Position numbers and translations under genes: made by a program. Shown one piece after another: positions 121-15,258 of a DNA stretch of 15,619 nt. The notes below the pieces were generated by a model, which saw only the letters and a list, made by a program, of their open reading frames with translations, was not told where the DNA came from and did not search any database. Source of the stretch: Candidatus Staskawiczbacteria bacterium RIFCSPHIGHO2_02_FULL_34_10 (GTDB lineage Bacteria; Patescibacteriota; Minisyncoccia; Minisyncoccales; Staskawiczbacteraceae); assembly GCA_001821915.1 (NCBI GenBank), contig MHOR01000007.1, positions 18,240-33,858 on the forward strand, in the 5' to 3' direction. The stretch's first letter is position 1, and each line of letters opens with the position of its first letter.

Positions 121-124
121 AATT

Positions 125-814: not shown

Positions 815-829
815 TAGATTTATTTTCAC

Positions 830-875
830 AAAAAAAGAGGGTTGGACAGATGTCCAACCCTTTGTTTTATTTTTT
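830..875. terminator. Bidirectional rho-independent terminator between the convergent genes 125..814 (+) and 867..2090 (-)
   Basis: An A-run (830-836) is followed by a perfect 10-bp stem GGGTTGGACA (839-848), a 2-nt loop, TGTCCAACCC (851-860), then TTTGTTTTATTTTTT (861-875). Confidence 0.65.
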
Positions 876-2090
876 CTCCCCCTTTTCCTTTTGCTGTCTT
901 TCATATTCTTCTCTGGATTCTTTCATTTGATCTGCAACGCTTTTACCCCCGCTACCGGATTTTTTGCTTCCGCCAGAACCACCGCCTGATGAGTTTCCGC
1001 CATCTTCTTTAGCAGAAGTCATGGCCGCTGCGGCGCCAGCAATAGTGCCAATGATTGAGGCTACTATATTACTACCCTCCAAGGGCTTACCACCAGAAGT
1101 AATGTCAATGTTCTTCTGGTCGAAACTACCACCATCTTTCGACATCTCCCTATTACGTAGCCTGCTAAGCTCCTTTTCTTTCTCTTGATAAGCACCAGTA
1201 CCCATAAGGGCACACCTTGCTTTTTGGAGATCTCTCTTGTTTAAGGGGTTAAGGCCCATCCTTGTAACCTCTCCCTTAAACCACTCATCAAGCATGAGTT
1301 CAATGGTCCTGCCAATAATCCTGGCTTTAGCTTTGGCAATGCTTTCGGCGGCTTCTGCTTTTACTATAGCAGCGCCCTTTTCAGCTTGTGCCTCTAATTG
1401 GAGAGTCGCGATCAGCTCAAGATTTTTACCAACTGGCCCCGACACGTGGACATACTCAATCCTAAGGTAGGCCTCGCCAGTACCGGGTTTATTAGTTGTT
1501 AACGGATTATTGTCAAACAATCCGCACCTGCAAAGCAAGCTATCAGGTTTTTGCAATAGATCGTTTACCTTACCGCTTAGCTCTTCGTTTTTCAAGCCAC
1601 CCATTACATCGGTATAGTTGTACTGACCAAATACAGAAAACAAATCGGGAGAAAAAGCTCGCTCTATCCATTTTCTCAGCTCCTCTTCGTCATTAATCGG
1701 AACACCAGAAGCAATGATGGTATCAATTTGATCGTCGTCATCGGGTAGCCCTAAAAAAAAGGTGGCATCGATACCAAGCTTCTGCCAGTCCTTTGATCTG
1801 ACCTGCAACTGTGTCCCCGAAATCTCCCAACTAGGCTTGTTTTCATCTCCTTTATATACTTGTGGCAATTTTTTTTGAGGAATCCTAACCAATTTAATCC
1901 CCCAAAACCATGGCACAAAATGAAGTCCCGAACCAAACCGACCATTGCTACTAGTTAGCTTTTTCTTCTTCAGGCGGCCGAAATACTGAAGCTTGGCGAC
2001 CTCATCAGGATTAATGGTATTGCAAAAAGAAACGATTAGCCAAATCACCACCGCCAGAAACAAGAAACTAATCAAAATGAACATAAGCAT
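867..2090 (-). CDS. SPFH/band-7 (stomatin/flotillin-like) domain membrane protein with an N-terminal TM anchor and a Gly/Ser-rich C-terminal tail. The ORF track extends it to 2135, but the likely start is the ATG at 2088-2090, preceded by AGAGGA.
   Basis: The protein opens with an N-terminal TM helix (MLMFILISFLFLAVVIWLIVSF). Ala/Glu-rich coiled-coil stretches (LQLEAQAEKGAAIVKAEAAESIAKAKARIIG) are typical of SPFH C-terminal regions. A good SD sequence (AGAGGAAAAC) lies 6 nt before the internal Met, whereas the far-upstream Met has none. The gene is visibly GC-richer than all neighbouring genes. Confidence 0.5.
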   Translation of the reverse strand: MLMFILISFLFLAVVIWLIVSFCNTINPDEVAKLQYFGRLKKKKLTSSNGRFGSGLHFVPWFWGIKLVRIPQKKLPQVYKGDENKPSWEISGTQLQVRSKDWQKLGIDATFFLGLPDDDDQIDTIIASGVPINDEEELRKWIERAFSPDLFSVFGQYNYTDVMGGLKNEELSGKVNDLLQKPDSLLCRCGLFDNNPLTTNKPGTGEAYLRIEYVHVSGPVGKNLELIATLQLEAQAEKGAAIVKAEAAESIAKAKARIIGRTIELMLDEWFKGEVTRMGLNPLNKRDLQKARCALMGTGAYQEKEKELSRLRNREMSKDGGSFDQKNIDITSGGKPLEGSNIVASIIGTIAGAAAAMTSAKEDGGNSSGGGSGGSKKSGSGGKSVADQMKESREEYERQQKEKGEKK

Positions 2091-2114
2091 GTTTTCCTCT
2101 CTTCTGTGAATGTT

Positions 2115-2153
2115 TCTCGTTAAATAGTCCGCCACAAACGGAATTTAACGAGA
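2115..2153 (-). promoter_or_regulatory. Perfect 11-bp inverted repeat (TCTCGTTAAAT…17 nt…ATTTAACGAGA) in the 5' leader of the SPFH gene
   Basis: The arms at 2115-2125 and 2143-2153 are exact reverse complements, and the element lies about 25 nt upstream of the proposed ATG at 2090. It may be an operator or a leader hairpin. Confidence 0.3.
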
Positions 2154-2270
2154 AGAAGTTTTTAAAGGACTGTCCAATTGACTTAAAACAATCAAATCAA
2201 TAGGTTATCTTTCTTATATCATAGTAAAGTATTCTTGTCAACCACTTTTTATTAATATTAAATACTATGT

Positions 2271-2300
2271 TGTTTTGTTACTATTTTATGTGATATAATG
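2271..2300 (+). promoter_or_regulatory. Candidate sigma70-type promoter for the plus-strand 4HB/T4SS-like operon (TTGTTT -35, extended -10 TGaTATAAT)
   Basis: An extended -10 element TGATATAAT ends at 2300, with TTGTTT about 18 nt upstream. It sits in the divergent intergenic region between the SPFH gene and the first 4HB gene. Confidence 0.3.
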
Positions 2301-2323
2301 AATAGTGAATTATTAATTTCTAT

Positions 2324-2766
2324 TTTTGAATTTCGAATAAATTTAAAATGATTTAATTTGAAAATTTATGGACAAAAAGTATGATTTAGAAGAAAGAACG
2401 GGGAGTTTTGGAAAAAGTATAATTAATTTTTGTAAATACATCAAACAAGATGTAATAACTAAACCTCTTATAAGCCAACTTATTCGTAGCGGAACAAGTA
2501 TAGGGGCAAATTACATGGAAGCCAATGGCGCAAGTTCAAGAAAAGATTTTAAAAATAAAATACATATTTGTAAAAAAGAATCCCAAGAAACAATGCATTG
2601 GTTAAAAATGATAATAGAATACGAGCCAAATAAAAAAGAACAAGCTATGATACTATGTAAAGAAGCGCAAGAATTAACTTTTATATTCGGAAAAATTATT
2701 TCATCTATGAATTCTAAAAATTCGGCATTCTGATTTTAATCAAAATTCGAAATTAGAAATTCAAAA
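2324..2766 (+). mobile_element. IR-bounded cassette 1 carrying four-helix-bundle gene 4HB-1
   Basis: The left arm TTTTGAATTTCGAATAA (2324-2340) and the right arm ATTCGAAATT[AGAAATT]CAAAA (2745-2766) are inverted copies of each other, apart from a 7-nt tandem duplication in the right arm. The same arms recur at 9861-9941. Confidence 0.4.
2368..2733 (+). CDS. Four-helix-bundle protein (Avd-like / '23S rRNA intervening sequence protein' family), paralog 1, 121 aa
   Basis: The diagnostic central motif LIRSGTSIGANYMEANGASSRKDF (L-x-RS-x-xSI-xAN-x-EG/A… S-x-KDF) is present. The size, about 120 aa, fits the family. Confidence 0.75.
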   Translation: MDKKYDLEERTGSFGKSIINFCKYIKQDVITKPLISQLIRSGTSIGANYMEANGASSRKDFKNKIHICKKESQETMHWLKMIIEYEPNKKEQAMILCKEAQELTFIFGKIISSMNSKNSAF

Positions 2767-2773
2767 TTTAGAC

Positions 2774-3190
2774 GTGGCACAGTATCCCATACCACAATTT
2801 ATTGAAAAAGAAGGAAAAATTATTTCTTTTTTAACCTTTAGACAGTTTTTTTTACTTGCCGGAGGAGGGGGCGCCTGCCTTTTATTGTATTTTATTCTGC
2901 CATTTTTTCTTTTTGCGCTTTGCGCAATAATTATAATGTCTTTAGTCGCAATAATAGCTTTTTTAAGAGTTAATGGGTTTTCTATAATAACAATATTTTT
3001 AAACTTTGTTGGTTTTTTAACAGGCAGTAAAACTTATATATGGAAAAAAGAAGAATCTTCTTATCCATTTAAAGTGTTAAAACGCCAAGAAGTTAAAAGT
3101 ATAGAAGAAGTAAAAACACCAAGTTTTTTAATGAAATCAAAGGCTAGTAAATTAAATGAGATTAAAAAAATGGTAGAATTAAAGAAATAA
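2774..3190 (+). CDS. PrgI/VirB3-like small membrane protein of Gram-positive-type T4SS (GTG start), 138 aa
   Basis: A short N-terminal cytoplasmic segment (…PIPQFIEKEGKIISFLTFRQFFLL) is followed by a double-helix hydrophobic hairpin (AGGGGACLLLYFILPFFLFALCAIIIMSLVAIIAFL). The gene sits immediately upstream of the VirB4-family ATPase, as prgI does relative to prgJ. The assignment rests on architecture and context only. Confidence 0.4.
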   Translation: MAQYPIPQFIEKEGKIISFLTFRQFFLLAGGGGACLLLYFILPFFLFALCAIIIMSLVAIIAFLRVNGFSIITIFLNFVGFLTGSKTYIWKKEESSYPFKVLKRQEVKSIEEVKTPSFLMKSKASKLNEIKKMVELKK

Positions 3191-3210
3191 TTTAGCTAAA
3201 TTATTTCTTT
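3181..3210. repeat. Perfect 30-bp palindrome AAAGAAATAATTTAGCTAAATTATTTCTTT overlapping the stop codon of the PrgI-like gene
   Basis: The 30-mer is its own reverse complement, giving a 14-bp stem with a 2-nt loop. It lies 5 nt before the left IR arm of cassette 2. Confidence 0.5.
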
Positions 3211-3215
3211 AATTA

Positions 3216-3703
3216 GAATCTAGAATCTTGTATCTTGTAGTTGGAATAGAATAAAGAATTATGAATAATAATGAAAATAAAATAAGAAAATTTACAGATC
3301 TTTATGCTTGGCAAGAGGGACATAAGTTAGTTTTAATGGTTTATAAAAATACTGAACAATTTCCAGAAAAAGAGAGATATAGTATTGTAGACCAAATGAG
3401 AAGAGCTGTAGTTTCTTTGACTTCCAATATAGCAGAGGGATTTTCAAGGAGGTCATCAAAAGAGAAAAATAGATTTTATTGCATAGCTCAAGCATCACTA
3501 GTAGAATTATAAAATCAATTTATTATATCTCGCGATGTTGGTTATCTATCAGAAAATGATTTTAAAATAATTGCTGACCAATCAGTTATAGCCAATAAAC
3601 TTTTAAATGGACTCTTAAAAGCTACTAAAGATAAGAAATTTGAGTCTTAGATTCTAAATTCAAAATATTTAATTCAAGATACTAGATACAAGATTCAAGA
3701 TTC
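3216..3703 (+). mobile_element. IR-bounded cassette 2 carrying 4HB-2 (interrupted)
   Basis: GAATCTAGAATCTTGTATCT (3216-3235) and AGATACAAGATTCAAGATTC (3684-3703) are reverse complements at 19 of 20 positions. Together they bracket the 4HB ORF like the stem of an rRNA IVS. Confidence 0.45.
3261..3650 (+). pseudogene. Four-helix-bundle (Avd-like) gene, paralog 2, interrupted by an in-frame TAA at 3510-3512. The N-terminal part is the 83-aa ORF in the track; the family's C-terminal part continues in the same frame to a TAG at 3648-3650.
   Basis: The N-terminal part carries …LYAWQEGHKLVLMVYKNTEQFPEKERYSIVDQMRRAVVSLTSNIAEGFSRRSSKEKNRFYCIAQASLVEL, a classic family motif. After the TAA the same frame reads NQFIISRDVGYLSENDFKIIADQSVIANKLLNGLLKATKDKKFES*, the expected C-terminal helix. 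A single base change (CAA, GAA or AAA to TAA) would explain the interruption. Confidence 0.65.
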
Positions 3704-3710
3704 ATAGTTT

Positions 3711-4373
3711 ATGGAAACAGCAACACAAGAATTTTTAGAAATAAAGGATATTAGAGAAGGTGTTTTGATTTTAAAAAATAACAACATAAGAGGGGTTCTT
3801 ATGGTTTCTTCAACAAATTTTGCTTTAAAGTCTAATGAAGAGCAGTCTGTTATTGTTTATGCATATCAAAACTTTTTAAACTCGCTTGATTTTTCGTGCC
3901 AAATTGTAATTCAATCAAGAAATATTAATATTACTCCCTATTTAGACAGCATTAAAAATTTAGTGGATAAACAGCCCAATGACTTATTAAAAGCGCAAAC
4001 TTCTTCTTATGGCGAATTTATAAAAGAGTTAGTGCATGGGGATAATATTATGACAAAAAACTTTTATGTGGTTGTGCCATATACTTTAACAGAAATACTA
4101 GGGGTAAAAGCTGCTTTATCAGAAACCAGTTTTTTTAAAAGTTTTAGTAAAAGTAAGGATAAAAAACAGCAAATGAAAGACGAAGACTTTGAAAAATGCA
4201 AAAACCAGCTTTGGCAAAGAATGGAGTTTTTAGCTATGGGATTAAAAAGATGCGGCTTAGATGTTATTCCTTTAACAACCCCTGAATTAATAGAGTTATT
4301 TTGGTCTGTCCATCATCCAAGCGAAGCAGAGGTTGGGTATTATCCGGAAATATTGCCAGAACTCCTTAAATAA
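3711..4373 (+). CDS. virB4: N-terminal domain fragment of a VirB4/TraC/PrgJ-family T4SS ATPase, 220 aa, ending at the left edge of cassette 3
   Basis: There is no NTP-binding motif. The sequence resembles the N-terminal region of Gram-positive VirB4 homologues (…IKDIREGVLILKNNNIRGVLMVSSTNFALKSNEEQSVIVYAYQNFLNSLDFSCQIVIQSRNINITPYL…). The downstream 599-aa ORF begins where such proteins continue. The combined length (220 + 599 = 819 aa) matches a full VirB4. Confidence 0.45.
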   Translation: METATQEFLEIKDIREGVLILKNNNIRGVLMVSSTNFALKSNEEQSVIVYAYQNFLNSLDFSCQIVIQSRNINITPYLDSIKNLVDKQPNDLLKAQTSSYGEFIKELVHGDNIMTKNFYVVVPYTLTEILGVKAALSETSFFKSFSKSKDKKQQMKDEDFEKCKNQLWQRMEFLAMGLKRCGLDVIPLTTPELIELFWSVHHPSEAEVGYYPEILPELLK

Positions 4374-4846
4374 TATTAAATATTAAAAAGCAAAAAGCAA
4401 AATGACAAATTAAAATGGAAAATCAAAAAGATAGCAGTAAATTTAAGGTGGAATTTAAAAAAAGATTATATACATTTGTTTTAAAAATGATTGAATTTAT
4501 TGATAAGCTGCCAAATGATAATGTTTCAAGAAGGATAGGGGATCAATTATTAAGAAGTGGAACAAGTATTTTGGGTAATTATATTGAAGGACAATCAGCA
4601 AGTAGTAAAAAAGATTTCATTAATTTTTTTAATCATTCATTAAAATCAGCTAATGAAAGTAAATTGTGGTTTGCAATAATTAGAGACAGTAAAAGAACTA
4701 AAGACTATATTGTTGTTTGGTTTTTAAAAGAATTAGATGAAATAGCAAATATATTCGCATCCAGTATCATAACTCTTAAAGGGAAAAATAAACTTTGATT
4801 TTTGATATGTCATTTTTATATTTGATATTTAATTTTTGATATTATT
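4369..4846 (+). mobile_element. IR-bounded cassette 3 carrying 4HB-3, inserted between the two halves of the VirB4-family gene
   Basis: The left flank is AATAATATTAAATATTAAAAAGCAAAAAGCAAAATGACAAATTAAA. The right flank is TTTTTGATATGTCATTTTTATATTTGATATTTAATTTTTGATATTATT. The two are imperfect inverted copies that share TGTCATTTT/AAAATGACA, ATATTTAAT and AATAATAT/ATATTATT. The TAA stop of the N-terminal half and the ATG of the C-terminal half sit at the cassette edges. Confidence 0.4.
4415..4798 (+). CDS. Four-helix-bundle protein (Avd-like / 23S rRNA IVS protein family), paralog 3, 127 aa
   Basis: Carries the family motif …IGDQLLRSGTSILGNYIEGQSASSKKDFINFFNHSLKSANESKLWF…. Confidence 0.75.
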   Translation: MENQKDSSKFKVEFKKRLYTFVLKMIEFIDKLPNDNVSRRIGDQLLRSGTSILGNYIEGQSASSKKDFINFFNHSLKSANESKLWFAIIRDSKRTKDYIVVWFLKELDEIANIFASSIITLKGKNKL

Positions 4847-6646
4847 ATGAAGTTACCATTCTTCAATAAGAAGGACGACGAAATAGAAGATAAAATGTTT
4901 GTGGAGCAAAATATTGACGTAAAAGACATTATAGCTCCACCATACATTGGCATAACCCAAGATTATATAAAATTAGGGGATAAAATTGCCAAATCTTTTT
5001 TTATTTTTTCTTACCCAAGGTATTTAAACACTGGATGGCTTTCTCCTGTAATTAATTTGGACGTCCAAATGGATATATCTTTTTTTATACATCCTATTAA
5101 TAGTGAATTAATTTTAAAAAAATTAAGGTCTAAAATTACTATGGTATCTTCAGAATTAATGGAAAGGCAAGAAAAGGGCCTAATAAGAGACCCTGCTTTA
5201 GAAACTGGATATCAAGATATTGAAAACTTGCGCGATAAAATTATAACCGCTCAGGAAAGAATGTTTAGGTTTGGGCTTTATATAACTATTTACGAAGAAA
5301 CAGAAGAGAAAATCAAATCAATTGAAGTTAATTTAAGATCAATTTTTGAATCACGCCTAATTTATATAAAACCTTCTTTATTTAAACAAAAGGAAGGTTT
5401 TATTTCAGCTGTCCCGTACGGACTAGATTTAATAAATGTCCATGTGCCAATGGATACAGAACCATTATCAACCACATTTCCTTTCATTTCTTTTGATTTA
5501 AGTTCTAATGAAGGTATTTTATATGGAGTAAATAGGCATAATAATTCTCTTATTTTATTTGATAGATTTACATTAGAAAACTATAATTTAGTTGTTTTTG
5601 CTAAATCTGGATCTGGTAAATCATATGCAATAAAACTAGAAATTTTAAGATATTTAATGTGGGGAATTGACGTTATTGTTATTGACCCAGAAAACGAATA
5701 TGAATTTTTAGCTGATGGAATAGGGGGGAATTTCTTTAAAATATCTTTAAATTCAGATAATCACGTAAATCCTTTTGACTTGCCGCTGCCAGGGCCTGAT
5801 GATGACCCTGAAGATATTTTAAGATCTAACACTATAAACTTAGTTGGATTATTTAGGATAATGTTAGGGGGTTTAACAAGTGAAGAAGACAGTATTTTAG
5901 ACCAAGCCATAACAGAAACATATGCTATAAGAGATATAACCCCGCAATCCGATCCAAATACATGGCAAGAAAATATACCTTTAATGTCTAACTTTGAAGA
6001 AATTTTAGAAAATATAACCCAAGCAGAATCTTTGGTAAGACGCCTTAAAAAATATACAAGAGGAACTTTTTCTGGATTTTTCAACCAACGGTCAAACATA
6101 CAAATTGATAAAAGTTTTATAGTTTTTGGAATAAGAGATATGGAAGAGTCCTTAAGGCCTATTGCTCTTTTTATAGTAATGAGATATGTTTGGAACATAG
6201 TAAGAACAAACATAAAAAAAAGAATTTTGGTGGTTGATGAAGCTTGGTGGTTAATGCAATCAGAGGATGGCGCTTCATTTTTATTTGGTTTAATAAAAAG
6301 AGGCAGAAAATACTGGCTGGGAGTTACCACTATAACTCAAGACATTGAAGACTTTATGAAGTCTCCTTATGGAAAAGCTATTATTACAAACTCTTCACTG
6401 CAACTTTTATTAAAACAATCTCCCGCGGAAGTTGATATATTACAAAAAACATTTGACTTAACAGAACAAGAAAAGATGCTTTTACTGGAAGCATCTGTTG
6501 GAGAAGGGCTTTTCTTTGCTGGTAAAAAACATGTATATATTAGTATAAAAGCCAGCTATACTGAAGACCAAATAATAACCACTAATCCGGGAGAAGTTGA
6601 GAAGATAAAAGAAGCAAAAAGGAGATTAAAACAATCCACAAATTAG
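4847..6646 (+). CDS. virB4: VirB4/TraC/PrgJ-family T4SS ATPase, C-terminal 599 aa including the P-loop NTPase domain
   Basis: Walker A VVFAKSGSGKSYAIK. Walker B RILVVDEAWWL, with the DEAW motif typical of VirB4/TraC. The region before the P-loop (YPRYLNTGWLSPVINLDVQMDISFFIHPI…LRSKIT…ELMERQEKGLIRDPALETGYQDIENLRDKI…ERMFRFGLYITIY) matches the conserved VirB4 middle domain as I recall it. Confidence 0.7.
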   Translation: MKLPFFNKKDDEIEDKMFVEQNIDVKDIIAPPYIGITQDYIKLGDKIAKSFFIFSYPRYLNTGWLSPVINLDVQMDISFFIHPINSELILKKLRSKITMVSSELMERQEKGLIRDPALETGYQDIENLRDKIITAQERMFRFGLYITIYEETEEKIKSIEVNLRSIFESRLIYIKPSLFKQKEGFISAVPYGLDLINVHVPMDTEPLSTTFPFISFDLSSNEGILYGVNRHNNSLILFDRFTLENYNLVVFAKSGSGKSYAIKLEILRYLMWGIDVIVIDPENEYEFLADGIGGNFFKISLNSDNHVNPFDLPLPGPDDDPEDILRSNTINLVGLFRIMLGGLTSEEDSILDQAITETYAIRDITPQSDPNTWQENIPLMSNFEEILENITQAESLVRRLKKYTRGTFSGFFNQRSNIQIDKSFIVFGIRDMEESLRPIALFIVMRYVWNIVRTNIKKRILVVDEAWWLMQSEDGASFLFGLIKRGRKYWLGVTTITQDIEDFMKSPYGKAIITNSSLQLLLKQSPAEVDILQKTFDLTEQEKMLLLEASVGEGLFFAGKKHVYISIKASYTEDQIITTNPGEVEKIKEAKRRLKQSTN

Positions 6647-6680
6647 TAGTTTTTTAAAGAAATAGTGGTATAATAAACCT

Positions 6681-8192
6681 ATGTTTAAAAAATATAACCA
6701 CCTAATACTTTTTGTCAGCTTATTTGTCTTGGTATTTTTTGCTTTAACTAATATTCAGTCTGTTTTAGCTCTTGAATTAAATTATCCTACACTCCCAGCT
6801 CCATTTAATATTGGGTGGAATGACTGTTCTAGCTCGGTACCATCGCCTACAGGAAATTGTCCGACTTTAACTCAATATATTGCTTATATTTTTTATTTCG
6901 CAGTGGTAGTGGCTGGAATAATAGGCGTTTTATCTATAATTATATCCGGCTTTCAAATATTATTATATGCTGGCAATCCATCTGCAATAAGCGCCGCGAA
7001 AGAAAGAATTTTTGGCTCTGTTTTAGGAATAATTCTTTTAATGTTTTCTCTTGTGCTTTTGCAAACTATAAACCCGGCACTTGTAAATGTGACTCAATCA
7101 GAGTTACTGCTTCAACCTGGACTTTATTATAGGGGTGACAACCCCAATCCTGGACCTACCACCCCCTATGTATATAAACCGGCGTCCACACAATCATCTA
7201 ATGTATTAACCGATTTACCTGCAGGATTTTCACATCTTTATTATAAATGCAACCCGCCCGGCAAAGCTCTTTTAGTTTGGACATATAGTAGAATAACCTG
7301 GAATTTAGACTATGTCGCAAATGGAAATTCAAATGCAACAACATTTCGCATACCATGTGGCTCTTCAATGAGTATAAGTCTTGATTCTGTAATGTCTTTT
7401 TATACAGCGTCCGAAGAACCTGGTGTTTATTTCTTTTTAAAAACTGGATGTGAGGGCTCTAGTACTACTGTCTTGCAAGAAAGCGGCCATATACCTGATT
7501 TTAGTTATATATATACTGAATTAGAACCACCAGTACTTTCATTAAGAATCGTTAATGAGGGTCTAATTCAAAAATATGCAGTGATTTTAAATAAAGATTA
7601 TGAATTTAAGAAAGAATGCAGCGCGCCACTTGGAATATTTAGTGGCACAATTGTAACCCCTCCACTCGAAGAAGGTAATTGTATTAATGTGTTGCCTCCC
7701 GATAAAGATGGAAATATATTTAATCCTTTTTCTGCATATATTATAAAACAACACGTTCAAGAATATCCGTCTATTTATACCGCTACTTTTTACAGTGGAA
7801 ATTTAGAGGCTAAATTTGAAAAACCTAATATAAAACAATGGTACTCATACGAGGGGAATATGAATCTTATTTTCACAAATAGGTGGCAAGATTCATCGAG
7901 AGTACCTCTGGATGCTTGGTATGCTGACCAATCCAAATGTAAAAATATAGTTGGTGATTACACTTGTTTAAACTATATAGAAAATGATGGATTTTTCAAC
8001 ATTATCCTTTATAGTAGTAATGAAAACGCACCTAATCCTAGTAGAACTAGATCTTGTGAAGTTTTCTTTAGTGAAAATTTAATCGCTGATGACCTTGACC
8101 TTCACTCAGATTATAATAATGCAAGTTATATAAATCTTTTACAGGGAGGTAGAAGTTTATATAGAATGGATATTATCCCTTATCCTAAATAA
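6681..8192 (+). CDS. Secreted/membrane protein: a cleavable signal peptide, a VirB2/TrbC-like pilin module (two hydrophobic helices separated by a short polar turn), and a roughly 360-aa Cys-rich extracellular domain with a Pro/Gly linker
   Basis: The N-terminus is MFKKYNHLILFVSLFVLVFFALTNIQSVLA, followed by the helix pair TQYIAYIFYFAVVVAGIIGVLSIIISGFQILLYAGNP…KERIFGSVLGIILLMFSLVLLQTINPAL, which is organised like the T4SS pilin families of CPR bacteria. A linker PGLYYRGDNPNPGPTTP follows. The C-terminal region has at least 12 Cys and no recognisable catalytic motif. Confidence 0.4.
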   Translation: MFKKYNHLILFVSLFVLVFFALTNIQSVLALELNYPTLPAPFNIGWNDCSSSVPSPTGNCPTLTQYIAYIFYFAVVVAGIIGVLSIIISGFQILLYAGNPSAISAAKERIFGSVLGIILLMFSLVLLQTINPALVNVTQSELLLQPGLYYRGDNPNPGPTTPYVYKPASTQSSNVLTDLPAGFSHLYYKCNPPGKALLVWTYSRITWNLDYVANGNSNATTFRIPCGSSMSISLDSVMSFYTASEEPGVYFFLKTGCEGSSTTVLQESGHIPDFSYIYTELEPPVLSLRIVNEGLIQKYAVILNKDYEFKKECSAPLGIFSGTIVTPPLEEGNCINVLPPDKDGNIFNPFSAYIIKQHVQEYPSIYTATFYSGNLEAKFEKPNIKQWYSYEGNMNLIFTNRWQDSSRVPLDAWYADQSKCKNIVGDYTCLNYIENDGFFNIILYSSNENAPNPSRTRSCEVFFSENLIADDLDLHSDYNNASYINLLQGGRSLYRMDIIPYPK

Positions 8193-8197
8193 TTATT

Positions 8198-8731
8198 TTA
8201 ACGGGAGCTAATAACTACACTCCTATTAATTCCTTCTCCTTGACTACCTGTAACAACGTCTTGCCGTTGAGCTAATTCCATATGTATTATTCTTCTTTCA
8301 TAAGCTGGCATAGGAGGCAGCGCTTTTTTTTCTTTAGTTAAAAACACTTGATCAGCTAGTTCATTAGCTATTTTTTTTAAATACTCAATTTTCCTTTTTT
8401 TATAGTCATTAATATCTAGTTTTAAATAAAAACTCTTTTGTAATTTTTTATTTAAAATTATTTTTAAAATTCTCTCTAGTTCAAATAAAGTTTGGCCTTC
8501 TTGCCCGATTAAAATTTGTGGCTCCTCTACTTTTATATCTAAGATAATTAGATCTATAATTTCACTATTTTGTAATTGAAAATCAATAATAGGTTGATTG
8601 GCCTCTAAAGATTTAGATTTTTTTTCTACAAAAGAAGTATTTAGTTCTATATTAAGAATTTTTATAGTCATTTTGTCTAAAAATTCTTGCAAAATACTTT
8701 TAATTTTTTCTAATTCTTCTTGATTTATCAT
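8198..8731 (-). CDS. jag: Jag/KhpB (R3H-domain RNA-binding protein, SpoIIIJ-associated)
   Basis: C-terminal R3H motif …YERRIIHMELAQRQDVVTGSQGEGINRSVVI. The gene sits immediately downstream of yidC in the conserved rpmH-rnpA-yidC-jag block. Confidence 0.8.
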   Translation of the reverse strand: MINQEELEKIKSILQEFLDKMTIKILNIELNTSFVEKKSKSLEANQPIIDFQLQNSEIIDLIILDIKVEEPQILIGQEGQTLFELERILKIILNKKLQKSFYLKLDINDYKKRKIEYLKKIANELADQVFLTKEKKALPPMPAYERRIIHMELAQRQDVVTGSQGEGINRSVVISSR

Positions 8732-8737
8732 ATTTTA

Positions 8738-9466
8738 TTAGGTGGGTTGCGCGCCTTTATTCTTATTAAAAATGAAGTATTGCTGTATTATAGAAAATAT
8801 TCCGCTTACTATCCAATATAAACCTAGCGCCGAAGGTAGTTTTAAAAGAATTATTATTGTTATAACTGGGAAAATATAAAGCATTTGTTTTTGCATAATA
8901 GAAGCCATATTTGCCTCCTTGGCTTGTTTTTTATTTAATTTAGGCGCTAGCATTTTTGTTTGAAAAAACTGTATAATTCCTGCTAATACAGCAAAGGTAA
9001 AATTTGGCTTTGATAAATTTACTACATTAAAAAACATCGCATTAATATGAATAGGATTTACAACAAAGTTATATAAACTATTAAGCGCTTCTGGCTTTAA
9101 TCCCTCCCAAAAAACCCTATATAAAGCAATTAATATAGGAAGCTGTATAATAATTAAAAATAATCCACTAAAGGGATTAATTTTTTCTTTACGATAAAGT
9201 TCTAGTGTTTCTTTAGCTTGTTTTTCTTTATCATCTTTAAATTTTCTTTGTATCTCCTCTATTTTTGGTTGTAATAATTGAAGAACTTTTTGGGAATTAA
9301 GGGCTTTTACTGAAATAGGATAAAGAATAAATCTTATAATTATTGTTACTAGTATTATTGTTAAGCCAAAATCATGTGTTGGTAGATAGTTATAAATTAA
9401 GACCAGAAAGTTAAAGAGGGGACGATATAAAAAAATATCAAAAATATTTACTAAAAATCCAAACAT
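8738..9466 (-). CDS. yidC: Membrane protein insertase YidC (short Oxa1-type form, 242 aa)
   Basis: Conserved YidC core …RFILYPISVKALNSQKVLQLLQPKIEEIQRKFKDDKEKQAKETLELYRKEKINPFSGLFLIIIQLPILIALYRVF…, with five hydrophobic helices. It lies between rnpA and jag. Confidence 0.9.
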   Translation of the reverse strand: MFGFLVNIFDIFLYRPLFNFLVLIYNYLPTHDFGLTIILVTIIIRFILYPISVKALNSQKVLQLLQPKIEEIQRKFKDDKEKQAKETLELYRKEKINPFSGLFLIIIQLPILIALYRVFWEGLKPEALNSLYNFVVNPIHINAMFFNVVNLSKPNFTFAVLAGIIQFFQTKMLAPKLNKKQAKEANMASIMQKQMLYIFPVITIIILLKLPSALGLYWIVSGIFSIIQQYFIFNKNKGAQPT

Positions 9467-9477
9467 TGCTTATTTAT

Positions 9478-9831
9478 TTAAATTAGATTTAATTTTTCGA
9501 AAACTTTAAATATATTACTTTTAACCTCTGAAAATTCTTTTTTTTCAATTCCAAATAAGGCAATGATTATAATATCTAATGGTTTTTTTATGCTATTTGG
9601 AGAATTTTTTTTAAAATTATTTAAAATTATAGATCTTAATCTTCTTTTTACTTTATTTCTTACAGTAGCTTTATTGGATACTTTCTTGCTAACTATAAAA
9701 CCGAAGCGACTTTCCTTTAAATGGTTTTTCATTGTCTTAAAAACTAAAAAATCATTTTTAAAACTCCTGCCTTTTTTAAAAACCAAATCAATATCTTTTT
9801 TTTTGGTCAACCTATTTATTTTTGGCAACAC
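9478..9831 (-). CDS. rnpA: RNase P protein component
   Basis: MLPKINRLTKKKDIDLVFKKGRSF…VRNKVKRRLR matches the RnpA N-terminal region and the RNR-type basic motif. It is downstream of rpmH. Confidence 0.9.
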   Translation of the reverse strand: MLPKINRLTKKKDIDLVFKKGRSFKNDFLVFKTMKNHLKESRFGFIVSKKVSNKATVRNKVKRRLRSIILNNFKKNSPNSIKKPLDIIIIALFGIEKKEFSEVKSNIFKVFEKLNLI

Positions 9832-9860
9832 GTAAGCTAATTCTTAATTTCTAATTTCTA

Positions 9861-9941
9861 ATTTTGAATAAATTCTAAATGATTTAATTTTAAAAACGTG
9901 TTTCTAAAATTTAAAATTCTTATTTTATTCGAAATTCAAAA
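9861..9941. repeat. ORF-less copy of the cassette arms (MITE-like or solo-IVS-like element) in the rpmH-rnpA spacer
   Basis: 9861-9890 matches 2330-2359, the left flank of cassette 1 in direct orientation, at 27 of 30 positions, including the exact 14-mer AAATGATTTAATTT. 9924-9941 is the exact reverse complement of 2324-2341, an 18 of 18 match. 9927-9941 matches the cassette 1 right arm ATTCGAAATT…CAAAA. Both arms are therefore present with only about 30 nt between them. Additional TAATTTC-type 7-nt tandem repeats lie at 9841-9868. Confidence 0.5.
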
Positions 9942-9963
9942 TTCTAAATTCGAATTTAAATTA

Positions 9964-10098
9964 CTATACCGATAACTTCTTTCTCCCTTTAGCCCTCCTT
10001 CTTTTAAGAACCTGTTCTCCTTTTTTAGTTTTTTTACGCACTAAAAAACCGTGTGTCCTTTTTCTTTTCTTCTTTTTTGGGTTATATGTAAAACTCAT
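9964..10098 (-). CDS. rpmH: 50S ribosomal protein L34, 44 aa (not in the supplied ORF track)
   Basis: The reverse complement translates to [44 protein letters not shown], which aligns convincingly with E. coli L34 (…[26 protein letters not shown]…). The ATG is at 10096-10098 and the stop is the complement of 9964-9966. Confidence 0.9.
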
Positions 10099-10389
10099 AG
10101 ATTGTATAATTATTTAGGTTAATATAATATGGGACTATTGGCTAGTATAGTATAAAAAGGCGCTCTGGTCAAATATATATATATTTGATTTAAACTTTTA
10201 ATTATCATTTTACATTTTAATATTTGCATTTTTAATTTTTATTATTGTGCGTCTTCATTAAAATATACAACACAACTTATCCACAGTTTAATAACATATA
10301 CGACTATTTTGTTTTGATTTGACTCTTTACTTTAAGGTTGATATTTTATTTATATAATTCAAAGTAATTAAAAATATAAATATAAAAAC
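10099..10389. promoter_or_regulatory. Probable oriC region in the rpmH-dnaA spacer, with an AT-rich unwinding element and divergent rpmH and dnaA promoters
   Basis: A 291-bp non-coding AT-rich spacer lies between the divergent rpmH and dnaA genes. It carries an (AT)n tract at 10174-10186 and one perfect DnaA box. Confidence 0.55.
10277..10285 (+). promoter_or_regulatory. Perfect DnaA box TTATCCACA
   Basis: Exact 9-mer consensus located 105 nt upstream of the dnaA ATG. Confidence 0.6.
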
Positions 10390-11751
10390 ATGGAAAATAG
10401 TGAACTTTGGCAATCAGTTTTAGCTCAGATGCAGCTTCATATTTCTAAGGCAAATTTTGCGACGTGGTTTCAAAATACTAGTATTGTCTCAAAAGAAAGT
10501 GAAAAGATTATAATTTCAGTTCCTAATGCTTTTTCTAAAGAATGGCTAAGTAATAAATATTACAAACTAATGCTTAAAACAATGCGCGATATAGACCACA
10601 CTATAAAAGAGTTAGAATTTACTATTAATCCACAATCCCTGAAAAAAAATATTATCGATAGAAAAACAGAAACCGAAAACGAAAAAATAGATATAGAACA
10701 ATTAAAATTTGATGAGTTTAAAGTTAATAGGGAAACTAATCTTAATCCCCGTTATACATTTGAAAATTTTGTTGTAGGATCATTTAATGACTTAGCTTAC
10801 GCTGCAAGCTTAGCCGTCTCAGAAAGCCCAGGACAGGCCTACAATCCATTATTTATTTATGGGGGTGTTGGATTAGGTAAAACTCATTTAATGCAGGCAA
10901 TTGGTAATAAAATAACAAATGACTCTAAAAAGAAAAAAGTAAAATACACTACCTCTGAAAAACTTGTTTCTAGTATTATTTCAGCTATTAGAAGCAATAC
11001 AATGGAGTCTTTTAAAGCTAGTTTAGCCCCAATTGATGTTTTAATTGTAGATGATGTGCAATTTATATCTGGCAAAATAAAAACTCAAGAAGAATTTTTT
11101 CATGTTTTTAATTCTTTATATGAAAAAAATAAACAAATAATACTTTCTTCAGATAGACCTCCAAACGCTATTCCAGAATTAGAAGAGAGGTTAAGGTCTA
11201 GGTTTGAAGGAGGTATGATTGCTGATGTTAATTTACCAGACTATGAAACAAGATTAGTAATCCTTAAAACAAAACTTCAGGAAAAAAACTTAAAACTACC
11301 AGAAGATGTATTAGAATATATTGCATCAAATGTTAAAAAAAATATTAGGGAATTAGAAGGAGCTTTAAATAGTTTATTAATTTATTGTAAAGTTAATAAC
11401 ACCCCCACTGTAGAAATAACTAAAAAATTATTAAAAGGTTTTGTTTTTTCGCCTTTTGATATTGCAAATTATAAAAAAATTATTGAAACAGTCGCTAAAT
11501 TTTATAATTTAGAAGAAAAAAACCTTTTTGACCAAACAAGAAGAAAAGAAATTGTAAAACCAAGACAAATAGCTATGTATTTATTAAGAAAAGAATTAAA
11601 ATATTCTTTTCCCACAATTGCGAGAAAATTTGGCGGCAAAGATCATACTACTGTAATATATGCATATAAAAAAATATTAAAAGAAAGTGAAGAAAATAAT
11701 AAACTAACAGAAGAATTAAGTTTAATAAAACAGAGAATATATAGTGGATAA
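10390..11751 (+). CDS. dnaA: Chromosomal replication initiator DnaA
   Basis: AAA+ Walker A GGVGLGKTHLMQAIGN and Walker B VLIVDDVQF. The domain IV HTH KPRQIAMYLLRKELKYSFPTIARKFGGKDHTTVIYAYKKI follows the conserved GG-DHTTV signature. Confidence 0.95.
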   Translation: MENSELWQSVLAQMQLHISKANFATWFQNTSIVSKESEKIIISVPNAFSKEWLSNKYYKLMLKTMRDIDHTIKELEFTINPQSLKKNIIDRKTETENEKIDIEQLKFDEFKVNRETNLNPRYTFENFVVGSFNDLAYAASLAVSESPGQAYNPLFIYGGVGLGKTHLMQAIGNKITNDSKKKKVKYTTSEKLVSSIISAIRSNTMESFKASLAPIDVLIVDDVQFISGKIKTQEEFFHVFNSLYEKNKQIILSSDRPPNAIPELEERLRSRFEGGMIADVNLPDYETRLVILKTKLQEKNLKLPEDVLEYIASNVKKNIRELEGALNSLLIYCKVNNTPTVEITKKLLKGFVFSPFDIANYKKIIETVAKFYNLEEKNLFDQTRRKEIVKPRQIAMYLLRKELKYSFPTIARKFGGKDHTTVIYAYKKILKESEENNKLTEELSLIKQRIYSG

Positions 11752-11796
11752 TATATATAATAAATCTATTAATTAAAAAATAAAAAATATATTCTA

Positions 11797-11808
11797 TTTA
11801 TCCCCACA
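11797..11808 (+). promoter_or_regulatory. Degenerate DnaA-box-like site TTATCCCCACA in the dnaA-dnaN spacer
   Basis: Matches the consensus with a single C inserted. It lies in a 204-bp AT-rich spacer. Confidence 0.2.
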
Positions 11809-11955
11809 ATATATTTATATATTTTTTAACTACTTTATTAACAGTTTATTTATTTTAATTTTATATATATTTTTATAATAAAAAATTACCAAAAATCATT
11901 AAAACATTATCTATAATAGTAATAATAATTTAATATATTAATAATTATAATAATT

Positions 11956-13083
11956 ATGAAAATAGAAATATTAAAAGAAAATCTAAAATCTGGACTTGGA
12001 ATTATAGAAAAAATTATTGGTAAGAATTTATCACTACCTATTTTAGATAATGTTTTAATAGATACAGAAGATAGTTTTTTAGTTTTAACTTCCACTGATT
12101 TAGAAACTGCTATTAAATTATGGATTTTAACTAAAATTATAAAAAAAGGCACAGTTGTTGTACCAGCAAAATTTCTTTCTAGTTTTATTTCTTCTTTACC
12201 AAACGAAAAAATTATAATGGAATCTAAAGAGCAAAAATTATATGTGGAATGTAGTAATATAAAAACACAAATTCAAGGATATAATACTGAGGACTTTCCA
12301 ATTATACCTAAATTTAATAACACTGAATTTATAGAAATAGATAATAAAAAGTTTTGCCAAGGATTATCTCAAATAATTGATATTGTTTCTATATCGCAAA
12401 ATAGGCCAGAAATTTCTGGTATTTATTTTTCTTTCTCAAAAAATAATATTAAAATTGTTGCCACTGACAGTTTTAGATTAGCAGAAAAAAATATCCAACT
12501 AGAAAAAAGTGTTAAAAAAGATTTTTCATTTATTTTACCCCAAAAACCAGCAAGAGAAATAATAAATATTTTGAATAGTAAAGAAGGGATTATTAGAATG
12601 TATTTTTCTAATAATCAAATATTATTTGAGTTTCCAATGAAAGAGATAGATCACCCTCAACTACAAATTACCTCTCGACTTATTGAGGGTGAATATCCTA
12701 ATTATCAAGATATTATTCCAAATAAATTTAAAACACTTATTACAATAAAAAGAGATGAATTTTTAAATCACATAAAAACAGCATCATTATTTTCTGGTAA
12801 AGTTAATGAGGTTAAACTTTTAATTAATGTAGATAAAAAAGAAGTGGAAGTTTTTGCTAAAAGTCCTGAGATAGGAGAAAATAAATCAAATTTTTCTGTA
12901 AAAATAGAAGGGGATCCAATAGAAGTTTCTTTTAATTATAAATATTTAATAGATGGACTTTTAAATATTAAAAGTTCTGAAATAATTTTTAAAATAAGTG
13001 AAAAAGAAGGTCCTTGTATTTTAGAGCCAGTTGGAGATAGTAGTTATATTTATGTAGTTATGCCTATTAAATCAATAAACTAA
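11956..13083 (+). CDS. dnaN: DNA polymerase III beta sliding clamp
   Basis: MKIEILKENLKSGLGIIEKIIGKNLSLPILDNVLIDTEDSFLVLTSTDLETAI… is the classic DnaN N-terminus. The 375-aa size is typical, and the gene is immediately downstream of dnaA. Confidence 0.9.
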   Translation: MKIEILKENLKSGLGIIEKIIGKNLSLPILDNVLIDTEDSFLVLTSTDLETAIKLWILTKIIKKGTVVVPAKFLSSFISSLPNEKIIMESKEQKLYVECSNIKTQIQGYNTEDFPIIPKFNNTEFIEIDNKKFCQGLSQIIDIVSISQNRPEISGIYFSFSKNNIKIVATDSFRLAEKNIQLEKSVKKDFSFILPQKPAREIINILNSKEGIIRMYFSNNQILFEFPMKEIDHPQLQITSRLIEGEYPNYQDIIPNKFKTLITIKRDEFLNHIKTASLFSGKVNEVKLLINVDKKEVEVFAKSPEIGENKSNFSVKIEGDPIEVSFNYKYLIDGLLNIKSSEIIFKISEKEGPCILEPVGDSSYIYVVMPIKSIN

Positions 13084-13100
13084 AAATTAAAGGTTAAAAT

Positions 13101-13130
13101 AAAAAACTCGCCTATAGGCGAGTTTTTTAT
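13101..13130. terminator. Bidirectional rho-independent terminator between convergent dnaN and the PBP gene
   Basis: AAAAAACTCGCC TATA GGCGAGTTTTTT. An 8-bp stem (AACTCGCC/GGCGAGTT) with a TATA loop, flanked by an A-run and a T-run. Confidence 0.65.
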
Positions 13131-13131
13131 T

Positions 13132-15258
13132 TTAGTTATTTAAATTGAGCCACTTTTTAATACCTTCTTCCCATTGAATATACATAGGATCTGAATTTGG
13201 ATTTTGGATTGGCTGACCTAATGGATTATTTTTATCTATATAATGTAAAATACTATGTGGCTCTTCTCCTTCTGGAAATTTTCCAAGTAAGATAGGATTT
13301 ATATTTTGGATAGGATCTGGTTTTATAAAATTTTCTATTTCGTGGGAGTTTAATGATTTTTCTATAACTTTTCTCCATATAGGGGCTGCTAAACCAATGC
13401 CCGTTTTCTTATTTGTTGAAGAATTATCATTATTACCAACCCAAACTCCAACAACTACAAATGGACTATATCCTATTGTCCATGCGTCATTATAATATTG
13501 AGTTGTACCTGTTTTAGCAGCAACTTGGTATTTATCAAAATATAAAGCATTGTTTTGGCCAAACATTGGAGTTCTTGCATTATTATCTGACAATATATCA
13601 TTAATTTTTCTTGCTGTTTGAGTATCTAAAACTTTTGTGGATTGTTTTGTATTTTGTTCTATTATATTTCCATTATTATCTTCTATTTTTAAAATACTCA
13701 CAGGTGGAGTTTTTAACCCCTCTGTTGCAAAAATACCATATGCAGATGTAATTTCTAGTAATGTTACCTCTCCACCCCCTAAAACCAAAGATAATCCATA
13801 TTTATCTGGTTCATTTAACGTTGTAATACCAAACGAACGCGCAGTTTCTAAACTATCTTTTAATCCACTTAAATATAAAAGCTCTACGGAAGGGATATTA
13901 AGAGATTGAGCTAAAGATGATCTTAAGGAAATCATCCCTCTATTTTTACCGTCATAATCTTGTGGATGATAACAATCTAATCCATATTTATCTTTTTCTT
14001 GAGTACTATCGGGATTACAATTTAAATTAAATTCTGTCTTAACGTCCCATAAAATAGTGTCTGGCGTATATCCTTTTTTAAGCGCAGTGGCGTATACAAA
14101 TGGCTTAAAAGAAGATCCTGGTTGACGAAGACCGAGCGTTGCTACATCAAATTTTGGATCAAATAAACAACTACCGCTTGCTTTTTCATCACACCCTTTT
14201 GGATAAGAATCTTCAAAATAATCTTTTGACCCTATTAAGGACAAAATTTCTCCTGTTTTAGGATCAATAACAACTATAGCTGTATTATTAGCATCAAATT
14301 TCACATTTGTTTTATCTGCCTCTTTTACCACTTCTTCGGTATAGTTTTGTAGTTCCCAGTCTAGTGTTGTATAAACTTTTAACCCCTTTTGCTGTAGAAA
14401 ATCTTGGCCATATTTATTCTCTAAATATTGCTTTATATACATTACAAAATGAGGGGCTTTAATTGGCGTTAAGGAATCAGAGAAGTTTAAGCTTTCTTCT
14501 TTGGCTTGTGATAATTGTTCACTATTAATATAGCCAAGATCTTTCATTCTTTCTAAAATAGTATCTTTTCTTTTTAAAAGCAAGTTTTTATGTGAACCGT
14601 ATGGCGAATAGTAGCTAGGAGCAGGTATTAGCGCGGTTAGGACAGCACTTTGCGCTAAGGATAAATTAGACGCAGATTTATTAAAGTATGTTTGGCTTGC
14701 TGCTTCAATACCATAGGAGTTTTCACCAAAAGGTATTTCATTTAAATACCAATTAAAAATTTGGTCTTTAGAATATCTTCTTTCTAGTTCTATACTTAAA
14801 ACTACTTCCCTCACCTTTCTTGATAGTGTTTTTTGTTTAGTTAAATAAACTGATCTTATTAATTGCTGTGTTATTGTTGACGCGCCAGTGCTGGCTTTTT
14901 GAAGCTTTAAATCAATTAATACAGACCTTATAATTGCTAAAAAATCAATTCCGCCATGCTGATAAAATCTATAGTCTTCAGAAGCTAAAACAGCATGTTT
15001 TAAATTATCTGAGATTTTATCAAATGAAATAATTTCTCTTTTTTCTTCTCCATAAATATCATACAAAAGAAATTTGCCCGTCCTATCATATATTTTAGTG
15101 GACTGTATAAATGGGCTTTCAGTAAACTTTTCTGGTCTAGGTAGGTCATAAGTATAGTAGAAAAATAAAAACAAAACAAAAAGCGCCAAGGCTAAAAGTA
15201 AAAAAGCCAGCCATTTTCCGATTAATAATAAAATTCTTATGTTCTTATTTTTTACCAT
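13132..15258 (-). CDS. ponA: Class A penicillin-binding protein (bifunctional glycosyltransferase/transpeptidase, PBP1A-type), 708 aa with an N-terminal TM anchor
   Basis: GT51 motifs EDYRFYQHGGID and GASTITQQL. Transpeptidase motifs SSFKP (SxxK), SLN and KTGTT. N-terminal anchor ILLLIGKWLAFLLLALALFVLFLFF. Confidence 0.9.
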   Translation of the reverse strand: MVKNKNIRILLLIGKWLAFLLLALALFVLFLFFYYTYDLPRPEKFTESPFIQSTKIYDRTGKFLLYDIYGEEKREIISFDKISDNLKHAVLASEDYRFYQHGGIDFLAIIRSVLIDLKLQKASTGASTITQQLIRSVYLTKQKTLSRKVREVVLSIELERRYSKDQIFNWYLNEIPFGENSYGIEAASQTYFNKSASNLSLAQSAVLTALIPAPSYYSPYGSHKNLLLKRKDTILERMKDLGYINSEQLSQAKEESLNFSDSLTPIKAPHFVMYIKQYLENKYGQDFLQQKGLKVYTTLDWELQNYTEEVVKEADKTNVKFDANNTAIVVIDPKTGEILSLIGSKDYFEDSYPKGCDEKASGSCLFDPKFDVATLGLRQPGSSFKPFVYATALKKGYTPDTILWDVKTEFNLNCNPDSTQEKDKYGLDCYHPQDYDGKNRGMISLRSSLAQSLNIPSVELLYLSGLKDSLETARSFGITTLNEPDKYGLSLVLGGGEVTLLEITSAYGIFATEGLKTPPVSILKIEDNNGNIIEQNTKQSTKVLDTQTARKINDILSDNNARTPMFGQNNALYFDKYQVAAKTGTTQYYNDAWTIGYSPFVVVGVWVGNNDNSSTNKKTGIGLAAPIWRKVIEKSLNSHEIENFIKPDPIQNINPILLGKFPEGEEPHSILHYIDKNNPLGQPIQNPNSDPMYIQWEEGIKKWLNLNN

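Follow-up and report, generated by a model that had tools for sequence, protein, structure and literature searches.

The junction between rpmH and rnpA is among the most compact and conserved in bacteria. In the 15,619-nt window analysed here (positions 18,240 to 33,858 of contig MHOR01000007.1, from the groundwater organism Candidatus Staskawiczbacteria bacterium RIFCSPHIGHO2_02_FULL_34_10), it has absorbed a palindrome of 118 nt. What is this insert, and how did it come to lie there? With a probability of about 75%, we favour the reading that it is a short form, lacking the gene, within a family of palindromic elements with arms of tandem heptamers, and that it was inserted into the spacer. 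The long forms of this family are shown below to carry, in their loop, a gene for a four-helix-bundle (4HB) protein of the TIGR02436/PF05635 type; three of them, cassettes 1 to 3, lie elsewhere in the window.

The palindrome in the rpmH-rnpA spacer

The spacer spans positions 9832-9963 and at 132 nt is unusually long, as the first-pass annotation of this DNA had remarked. The median is 7 nt in 57 relatives (DnaA 53-85% identical), 47 of which have at most 26 nt. Nearly all of it is one imperfect hairpin without an open reading frame (ORF). The locus is composed as follows (labels beginning with L are our handles for the sequences compared).

9839-9956, family consensus polarity on the plus strand: ORF-less short-form heptamer-repeat hairpin of 118 nt, recognised by folding, the family profile and 80-91% identity to foreign short forms
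9839-9875: left arm of degenerate tandem heptamers (AATTYYT and CTAATTT units), with period 7 at 9837-9864 in Tandem Repeats Finder (TRF) and a self-identity at lag 7 of 0.71; pairs with 9934-9959
9876-9919: apical region with the leader AAATGATTTAATTT, which is conserved across the family, and with a small hairpin at the tip around CGTGTTT, based on the exact 14-mer, the alignment with L103, L106 and L135, and folds
9920-9956: right arm of tandem heptamers (ATTCNAA units), holding the reverse complement of an 18-mer at 9924-9941 (minus strand); TRF period 7 at 9927-9954, lag-7 identity 0.66
9957-9963, minus strand: residual host spacer on the rpmH side, TAATTTA, from comparison of the joined flanks with the L013 spacer
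9832-9838, minus strand: residual host spacer on the rnpA side, AGCTTAC, abutting the rnpA GTG start
9964-10098, minus strand: rpmH (ribosomal protein L34), PF00468, E=2.4e-19
9478-9831, minus strand: rnpA (RNase P protein), GTG start, PF00825, E=6.2e-23
10144-10172, minus strand: promoter-like site upstream of rpmH (TTGACC-17-TATACT), agreeing with 10 of 12 consensus positions; a consensus match only

The element is short and non-coding, and its terminal inverted repeats (arms of 26 nt, at least 85% complementary) close it into a long stem-loop, as do the arms of the three cassettes. Only 7 nt separate the hairpin from the rpmH stop codon, and 8 nt lie between its last paired base and the rnpA GTG. 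Folding of the spacer, a check proposed at the outset, gave a single long hairpin on either strand, at -20.2 kcal/mol (z -2.2) on the transcribed minus strand and -16.0 kcal/mol (z -2.4) on the plus strand. Tandem 7-nt repeats build every arm, both in the spacer and in all three cassettes (TRF period 7 at 2740-2768, 3214-3239, 3672-3704, 4372-4402, 4794-4843, 9837-9864 and 9927-9954), and the lag-7 self-identity of the arms is 0.55-0.78, compared with 0.29 in 1368 control flanks. The spacer thus holds the marks of a heptamer pair, namely two convergent 7-nt arrays in an intergenic position between co-directional ORFs. No terminator-like site, defined by a GC-rich stem and a U tract, was found in 9400-10420, and promoter-like matches within the hairpin were at chance level in the promoter scan. 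A search of the whole window against Rfam gave nothing at the gathering threshold, and in 9780-10020 the hits were no better than chance (E 6.8-8.6).

The hairpin had first been noticed through its likeness to cassette 1 (2308-2772), and the matches then reported are there: 27 of 30 positions agree between 9861-9890 and 2330-2359, 2346-2359 and 9877-9890 share the 14-mer AAATGATTTAATTT exactly, and the 18-mer TTTTGAATTTCGAATAAA is exact at 2324-2341 on the plus and 9924-9941 on the minus strand. With up to 2 mismatches allowed, the 18-mer is matched twice where 0.04 matches are expected. The likeness extends even further than first noted, to 57 nt of 86% identity (2308-2364 against 9839-9895). 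One detail has to be corrected, as the right arm of cassette 1 does not have the 15-mer ATTCGAAATTCAAAA in unbroken form; one extra heptamer interrupts it there (ATTCGAAATT-AGAAATT-CAAAA, 2745-2766). The shared words are not generic AT-rich words either, a doubt raised with the original observation: both are missing from about 1.3 Mb of sequence of 80 related genomes, and in about 30 kb of this genome the family is confined to these two loci.

The hairpin is not, for all this likeness, a copy of cassette 1 in particular. Both the 18-mer and the 14-mer belong to the consensus of the whole family and hence are no evidence of local duplication, and short forms in other organisms are 80-91% identical to the spacer copy, compared with 84.8% for the cassette 1 flanks. 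When long forms are compared, the values are 0.88 for L189, 0.82 for site C of L229 and 0.74 for the copy's own cassette 1. Local derivation from cassette 1 is therefore not supported, the spacer copy being closer to foreign elements. In addition, its central junction (..TTTTRAAAC-CGTGTTT-MAAAATT..) is common to the ORF-less copies in L103, L106 and L135, which indicates that it was inherited as a short form.

Among the nearest relatives the spacer measures 10 nt in L026 (DnaA 85%), 1 nt in L012 and L014, and 27 nt in L229 (81%). The last of these carries 4HB cassettes at all three operon sites described below, yet lacks the spacer element, and the notion that the long spacer is simply a conserved trait of the relatives was not borne out. 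The residual flanks, when joined (TAATTTA+(A)GCTTAC), resemble the 13-nt spacer of L013, TAATTTAGTTTAT, so the insertion appears clean. Altogether, the comparison shows that the ancestral spacer measured about 13 nt and that the element was evidently inserted into it in this lineage. The suggestion of recent mobility holds insofar as the insertion followed the split from L229 and L026 (DnaA 81-85%) and the element is absent from relatives; 'recent' is only relative, and no presence/absence polymorphism of the spacer element was seen in the population. The suggestion that a structured insert is tolerated within the rpmH-rnpA transcript stands. The start codon of rnpA, directly after the insert, is GTG here (9829-9831) and ATG in ten relatives inspected, whose genes continue with the same TTGCC/CTGCC codons as in the window.

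Four other lineages (L021, L045, L069 and L090) have unrelated hairpins of 108-151 nt in this spacer, that of L069 being also built of heptamers (lag-7 identity 0.58). The site has therefore been occupied repeatedly. The L021 spacer contains a GC-rich palindrome similar to those of L144 and L146, in which AT-rich heptamer elements adjoin GC-rich palindromic repeats and the flanks share the motif GCGAGGAGCGGAGCGACGAAGCAATCTC. In L006 and L007 the assemblies end within the hairpin, 26 nt upstream of rnpA, suggesting that such palindromes fragment short-read assemblies. In practical terms, hairpins of this kind interrupt assemblies and lengthen the spacers between genes across the candidate phyla radiation.

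Cassettes with a 4HB gene and their short forms

The three long forms of the window are the following.

2308-2772, plus strand: cassette 1, long form of the spacer's arm family; left arm 2308-2345, leader 2346-2367, 4HB gene 2368-2733, right arm 2734-2772
3210-3705, plus strand: cassette 2, long form with arms GAATCTW / ATWCAAG; 4HB gene 3261-3650 with an in-frame TAA at 3510-3512
4372-4846, plus strand: cassette 3, long form with a third kind of arm, AAAAAGC / TTTGATA; 4HB gene 4415-4798

Cassette 1 was delimited from its PF05635 and TIGR02436 matches, from arms that pair in both the minimum free energy (MFE) and the centroid structure, and from nhmmer matches on both flanks. The heptamer unit differs for each cassette, while in each the arms pair across more than 400 nt (MFE and centroid) with the PF05635 ORF in the loop; long forms with the same arms lie in L138, L120, L189, L227 and L229. 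The cassette proteins score 73.7, 79.0 and 77.8 bits with TIGR02436 (cut-off 24) and 58.8, 61.4 and 86.2 bits with PF05635 (cut-off 33.8). In cassette 2 the frame after the TAA runs on to 3650 with typical family sequence, and the same 83-aa product is called in all retrieved assemblies. The TAA is therefore not a sequencing error, and this gene is a real pseudogene or a case of read-through.

The 4HB protein is the sole ORF product of the long forms, in which Pfam, NCBIfam and PADLOC revealed no transposase domain, and it is the only candidate for a factor encoded by the element. Its closest solved chain, 2rld_A, is an uncharacterised protein. A role of the 4HB proteins as defence genes was considered and dropped, as the PADLOC models gave nothing meaningful.

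Arms and genes belong together. The spacer's arm family flanks the 4HB genes of L138, L120, L189, L114 and L147, which encode the nearest homologues of the cassette 1 protein in the set (59-72% identity), and the cassette 2 protein is nearest to that of L043, which has the same ATACAAG arms. Since the closest homologues share the arm type, arms and ORF co-vary. The cassette 1 protein has 5739 database homologues; the best 120 of these 5739 are 63-84% identical, and their named sources are other Patescibacteria lineages. For comparison, DnaA and RnpA of the same relatives are 53-85% and 38-63% identical, respectively.

Three sites of one operon allow the states of the element to be followed between genomes: site A upstream of PrgI, site B between PrgI and a TraC-like gene, and site C between the TraC-like and a VirB4-like gene.

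Window: A long; B long; C long
L229: A long; B long; C long, of cassette-1 type
L026: A, ORF-less hairpin with cassette-2-like arms; B, empty, about 12 nt; C long, a different cassette
L227: A long; B, 102-nt short form; C, 102-nt short form
L043: A long; B and C, ORF-less hairpins of other heptamers

These alignments show that orthologous sites of the operon alternate between long, short and empty states. In L227 the two short forms (10813-10914 and 11575-11676) occupy sites B and C, where cassettes 2 and 3 lie in the window. They agree at 101 of 102 positions, make up the whole spacers from TAA stop to ATG, and are most like the long form of their own genome (0.86-0.87). Their right end, AAATTCACAA..ATG, recurs behind the long form, in front of PrgI. 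The long and the short form are thus two states of one element, and the rpmH-rnpA spacer, as first proposed, contains an element of the cassettes' kind without the ORF. Among the three options then offered, a derivative resembling a miniature inverted-repeat transposable element (MITE) fits best; the strict definition of a MITE does not apply, because the long-form partner has no transposase and no clear target-site duplication is present.

Two further observations concern these cassettes. A strong extended -10-like motif, TGTGATATAATG, lies at 2270-2300, just before the left arm of cassette 1, and the same motif is found upstream of the site A hairpin of L026; the operon transcript may start nearly at the cassette 1 hairpin. 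On the 1.55-Mb contig ctg97414l (L225/L226), the same DUF4012-4HB-glycosyltransferase stretch occurs at 1-14708 and 1343068-1363427. Downstream of the two stretches the genes are not the same, which marks the region as duplicated rather than as a simple overlap of the contig ends.

The family within and beyond the Patescibacteria

To describe the family, metagenomes were scanned with the exact 18-mer, and at least 118 stretches were listed. Among these, 49 carry the 18-mer inside a family element, 37 of which are full-length hairpins, on contigs with a GC content of 0.24-0.48; in the other 69 it lies in unrelated, mostly coding, contexts. The family profile matches the spacer element with E=1.5e-13 (nhmmer). 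At least 44 distinct full-length copies were distinguished, none of them within an ORF of at least 80 aa, and many of the copies among the matches listed lie 0-16 nt from the stop and start codons of co-directional genes, as in the window. Their orientation relative to the host genes shows no significant bias (13 same, 8 opposite). Several forms can be present on one contig, for example three short forms in about 2.5 kb of L213, or a long form together with two short ones within 8.5 kb of L138.

Family copies are also found in rRNA genes. In the 16S rRNA of L116 the element is a 127-nt insert that takes the place of a loop near model position 80, with the same flanking helix sequence in L206, and in the 23S rRNA of L128 it lies within a 173-nt insert. 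The spacer copy is 84% identical to the L116 copy and also to the L128 copy. The L128 23S rRNA has a second insert of about 170 nt (approximately 760-940) at large-subunit model position 583/584, in the helix 25 region, with different heptamer arms (AATTTCC / GAAATTG) and a complex loop. Being present in rRNA, the family ties the spacer hairpin to the classical intervening sequences. The alignments show it in other Patescibacteria at the helix tips of 16S and 23S rRNA and, as an exact fill, in the spacers between co-directional genes.

Heptamer arms around 4HB genes are not confined to this phylum. A tblastn search of plasmids with the cassette 1 protein gave 31 records, 16 of them from Nostoc, and the 14 that were fetched come from Cyanobacteriota, Bacteroidota, Spirochaetota, Chloroflexota and Bacillota. 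Inverted heptamer arrays lie on both sides of the 4HB gene in each of the 14, and every case lies above the 99th percentile of 400 control genes. Nostoc flagelliforme, for example, has (TAATTCG)x4...(TTACGAA)x4, and in Euhalothece about 12 GTCACTG units follow one another. By sequence, then, the PF05635/TIGR02436 4HB gene is flanked by 7-base repeat arms in six bacterial phyla. The plasmid genes sit inside operons (hsdS|hsdR, cas2|cas1, drmD|MmeI, DUF1156|HEPN, RND adaptor|permease). Cassettes in defence operons were seen in L237, L240, L241, L243, L244 and L246, with the DUF1156 / Swt1-HEPN arrangement in Gloeocapsa and Chlorohelix. Within 50 kb of a Nostoc plasmid there are four inverted heptamer pairs, two that enclose 4HB genes and two that are ORF-less.

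These findings lead us to a broader proposal, to which we give slightly less than even prospects. A single pan-bacterial hairpin cassette would consist of the 4HB gene and its inverted heptamer pair, and its gene-less derivatives would include the ORF-less rRNA intervening sequences, the spacer hairpins and maybe at least part of the unexplained intergenic heptamers of cyanobacteria and Xanthomonas. As the cassette's own factor, the 4HB protein would bind the heptamer stem and would either aid the spread of the cassette or control the processing of the host transcript. In the limited literature searched, we found no paper linking 4HB or intervening-sequence proteins with heptamer repeats, and none on such elements in mRNA spacers.

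Three other repeats of the window are recorded here. Period-7 and period-19 repeats at 10181-10241, in the rpmH-dnaA intergenic region (TRF), could be origin or DnaA-box repeats or a further heptamer array. A perfect 20+20 nt palindrome, TAAAATAAAAAACTCGCCTA / TAGGCGAGTTTTTTATTTTA, at 13095-13134, where the dnaN and PBP genes converge, resembles a terminator that acts in both directions. Around the dnaN start there is a 22-nt inverted repeat of 95% complementarity (11898-11919 / 12038-12059).

Explanations for the spacer hairpin and known systems

The spacer hairpin would be co-transcribed in an rpmH-rnpA-yidC-jag mRNA and would form there an AU-rich hairpin of about 50 bp, at whose base the rpmH stop (7 nt away) and the rnpA start (8 nt away) are juxtaposed. 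Because stop and start are brought together, the closed hairpin would be nearly neutral, as at the tip of an rRNA helix, and the tolerance seen at this junction fits the idea that such a hairpin is nearly neutral wherever its ends meet. RNase III might cut it and so split the rpmH and rnpA messages, a step that we regard as possible rather than probable, by analogy with the intervening sequences of rRNA. We favour a tolerated, selfish palindrome acting at the DNA level over a regulator evolved in place, because comparison of the strands (G-U test) gave no evidence of selection on the sense RNA; the complementarity of the arms is symmetric between strands.

Several points weigh against this account. 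Selection of the sample with the exact 18-mer inflates the apparent conservation of the family and renders covariation uninformative. In the G-U test on 28 copies, the sense strand was not more stable than the antisense strand (13 vs 14, Wilcoxon p=0.75); with no such asymmetry there is no signature of selection on RNA, and none is claimed. The AU-rich stem of the spacer hairpin is only moderately stable (-20 kcal/mol, z -2.2). The family has just 2 copies in about 30 kb of this genome and 1-2 copies in 1.3 Mb of the relatives' dnaA regions, and so is not a high-copy element. The identity of copies within genomes (0.80) equals that between genomes (0.79), with the exceptions of L227 (0.99) and L131 (0.91), and thus does not point to a recent burst. 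Nor is a target-site duplication clear, with at most TTA or AATT in an AT-rich context.

Three other explanations were weighed. The hairpin might be a deletion remnant in place, left when a full 4HB cassette between rpmH and rnpA lost its ORF and kept its arms. Conversion from long to short is plausible in general, given that sites B and C are long in the window and short in L227 and that the short forms of L227 most resemble that genome's own long form. At the rpmH-rnpA spacer, however, a 4HB gene is present in none of the 57 relatives, nor in L229, and both the central junction shared with short forms of other organisms and the greater similarity to foreign elements than to cassette 1 speak for arrival as a short form, which makes such a remnant unlikely. 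A host structure evolved in place, such as a processing site, an attenuator or an mRNA stabiliser that uncouples abundant L34 from scarce RnpA, with convergent slippage of AT-rich heptamers accounting for the likeness to cassette 1, would agree with the long hairpins that at least 5 of 58 lineages (the window, L021, L045, L069 and L090) have in this spacer. Their repeated appearance suggests a site that tolerates or benefits from a hairpin, and heptamer repeats near start codons in Nostoc have been proposed to regulate expression (bioRxiv 10.1101/2022.06.06.494920). We nevertheless consider this explanation very doubtful: the hairpin is absent from the nearest relatives, and it shares 80-91% identity over about 100 nt, the non-arm leader included, with copies in unrelated contexts such as rRNA. 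Orientation to host genes is random, strand-specific stability was not seen, and neither a terminator-like site nor an Rfam match was found for the spacer.

It can hardly be maintained, in turn, that the likeness is a chance resemblance of low-complexity, AT-rich DNA or that the hairpin is an artefact of assembly. The window has a GC content of about 30%, the arms are simple repeats, the 18-mer turns up in the 69 unrelated stretches mentioned above, and contigs do break inside the hairpin. Against this stand the low expectation for the 18-mer, the score of the family profile and the absence of the shared words from equally AT-rich relatives, and assembly artefact is ruled out by 8 contigs from different sample assemblies that have an identical 132-nt spacer. 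We therefore retain the insertion of a gene-less short form as the favoured reading.

Among the known systems closest to the element are the intervening sequences of rRNA genes, which are stem-loops with terminal inverted repeats, some with an S23p/PF05635 ORF, and are cut by RNase III (PMC4990558). The rRNA genes of candidate-phyla-radiation bacteria contain PF05635 ORFs as well as short inserts that are not introns (PMC11270868). Like our family, the intervening sequences in 23S helices 9, 25 and 45 of Salmonella, Leptospira and Coxiella are stem-loops closed by terminal inverted repeats, occur in ORF-less and PF05635-bearing versions, have a sporadic distribution that suggests horizontal transfer, and are inserted where a closed hairpin is harmless (PMC4990558). 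In contrast to them, the spacer copy and most family members lie between protein-coding genes and not in rRNA, and tandem-heptamer arms are a feature of the family for which we found no description among intervening sequences. No rnc gene is listed in the approximately 30 kb of this genome.

Correia elements of Neisseria are MITEs that form transcribed hairpins, and these hairpins are substrates of RNase III. Correia elements, like REPINs (PMC3116915), share with our family that they are short, non-coding, palindromic and intergenic, are co-transcribed with flanking genes, and are present or absent between relatives. The family differs from them in that its full-length partner encodes only the 4HB protein, with no known transposase or RAYT domain, in its low copy number per genome without clear target-site duplication, and in sub-families that differ completely in arm sequence yet keep the 7-nt period.

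The Avd proteins of diversity-generating retroelements (bAvd-like, PF22296 / NF033474) belong to the same four-helix-bundle fold family as the cassette proteins (PMC10053308), and the cassette 2 protein weakly matches bAvd-like, with scores far below the Avd cut-offs. Unlike Avd, the cassettes have no reverse transcriptase, template repeat or variable repeat nearby, and their proteins are TIGR02436 members. TIGR-Tas arrays were set aside, since the repeats here recur every 7 nt and are arranged as inverted arms.

Heptamer repeats have been described in Xanthomonas (GGGAATC, 70-75 convergent pairs per genome), Nostoc (GGGGAYT and TTTTGAA) and Beggiatoaceae (TAACTGA); they are transcribed, lie mostly between co-directional ORFs, often at start codons, and often form inverted pairs able to fold into stem-loops (PMC4692102, PMC4679880, bioRxiv 10.1101/2022.06.06.494920). 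These three reports name no associated gene, look-ups in their texts did not turn up the terms four helix, S23 or intervening, and the Nostoc preprint postulates a binding partner for its heptamers (10.1101/2022.06.06.494920). The TTTTGAA unit of Nostoc is the very unit found in the family of the spacer element. Whereas the published studies treat such arrays as G-quadruplex or regulatory repeats, here they form the arms of cassettes with a 4HB gene or of derivatives that lack the ORF.

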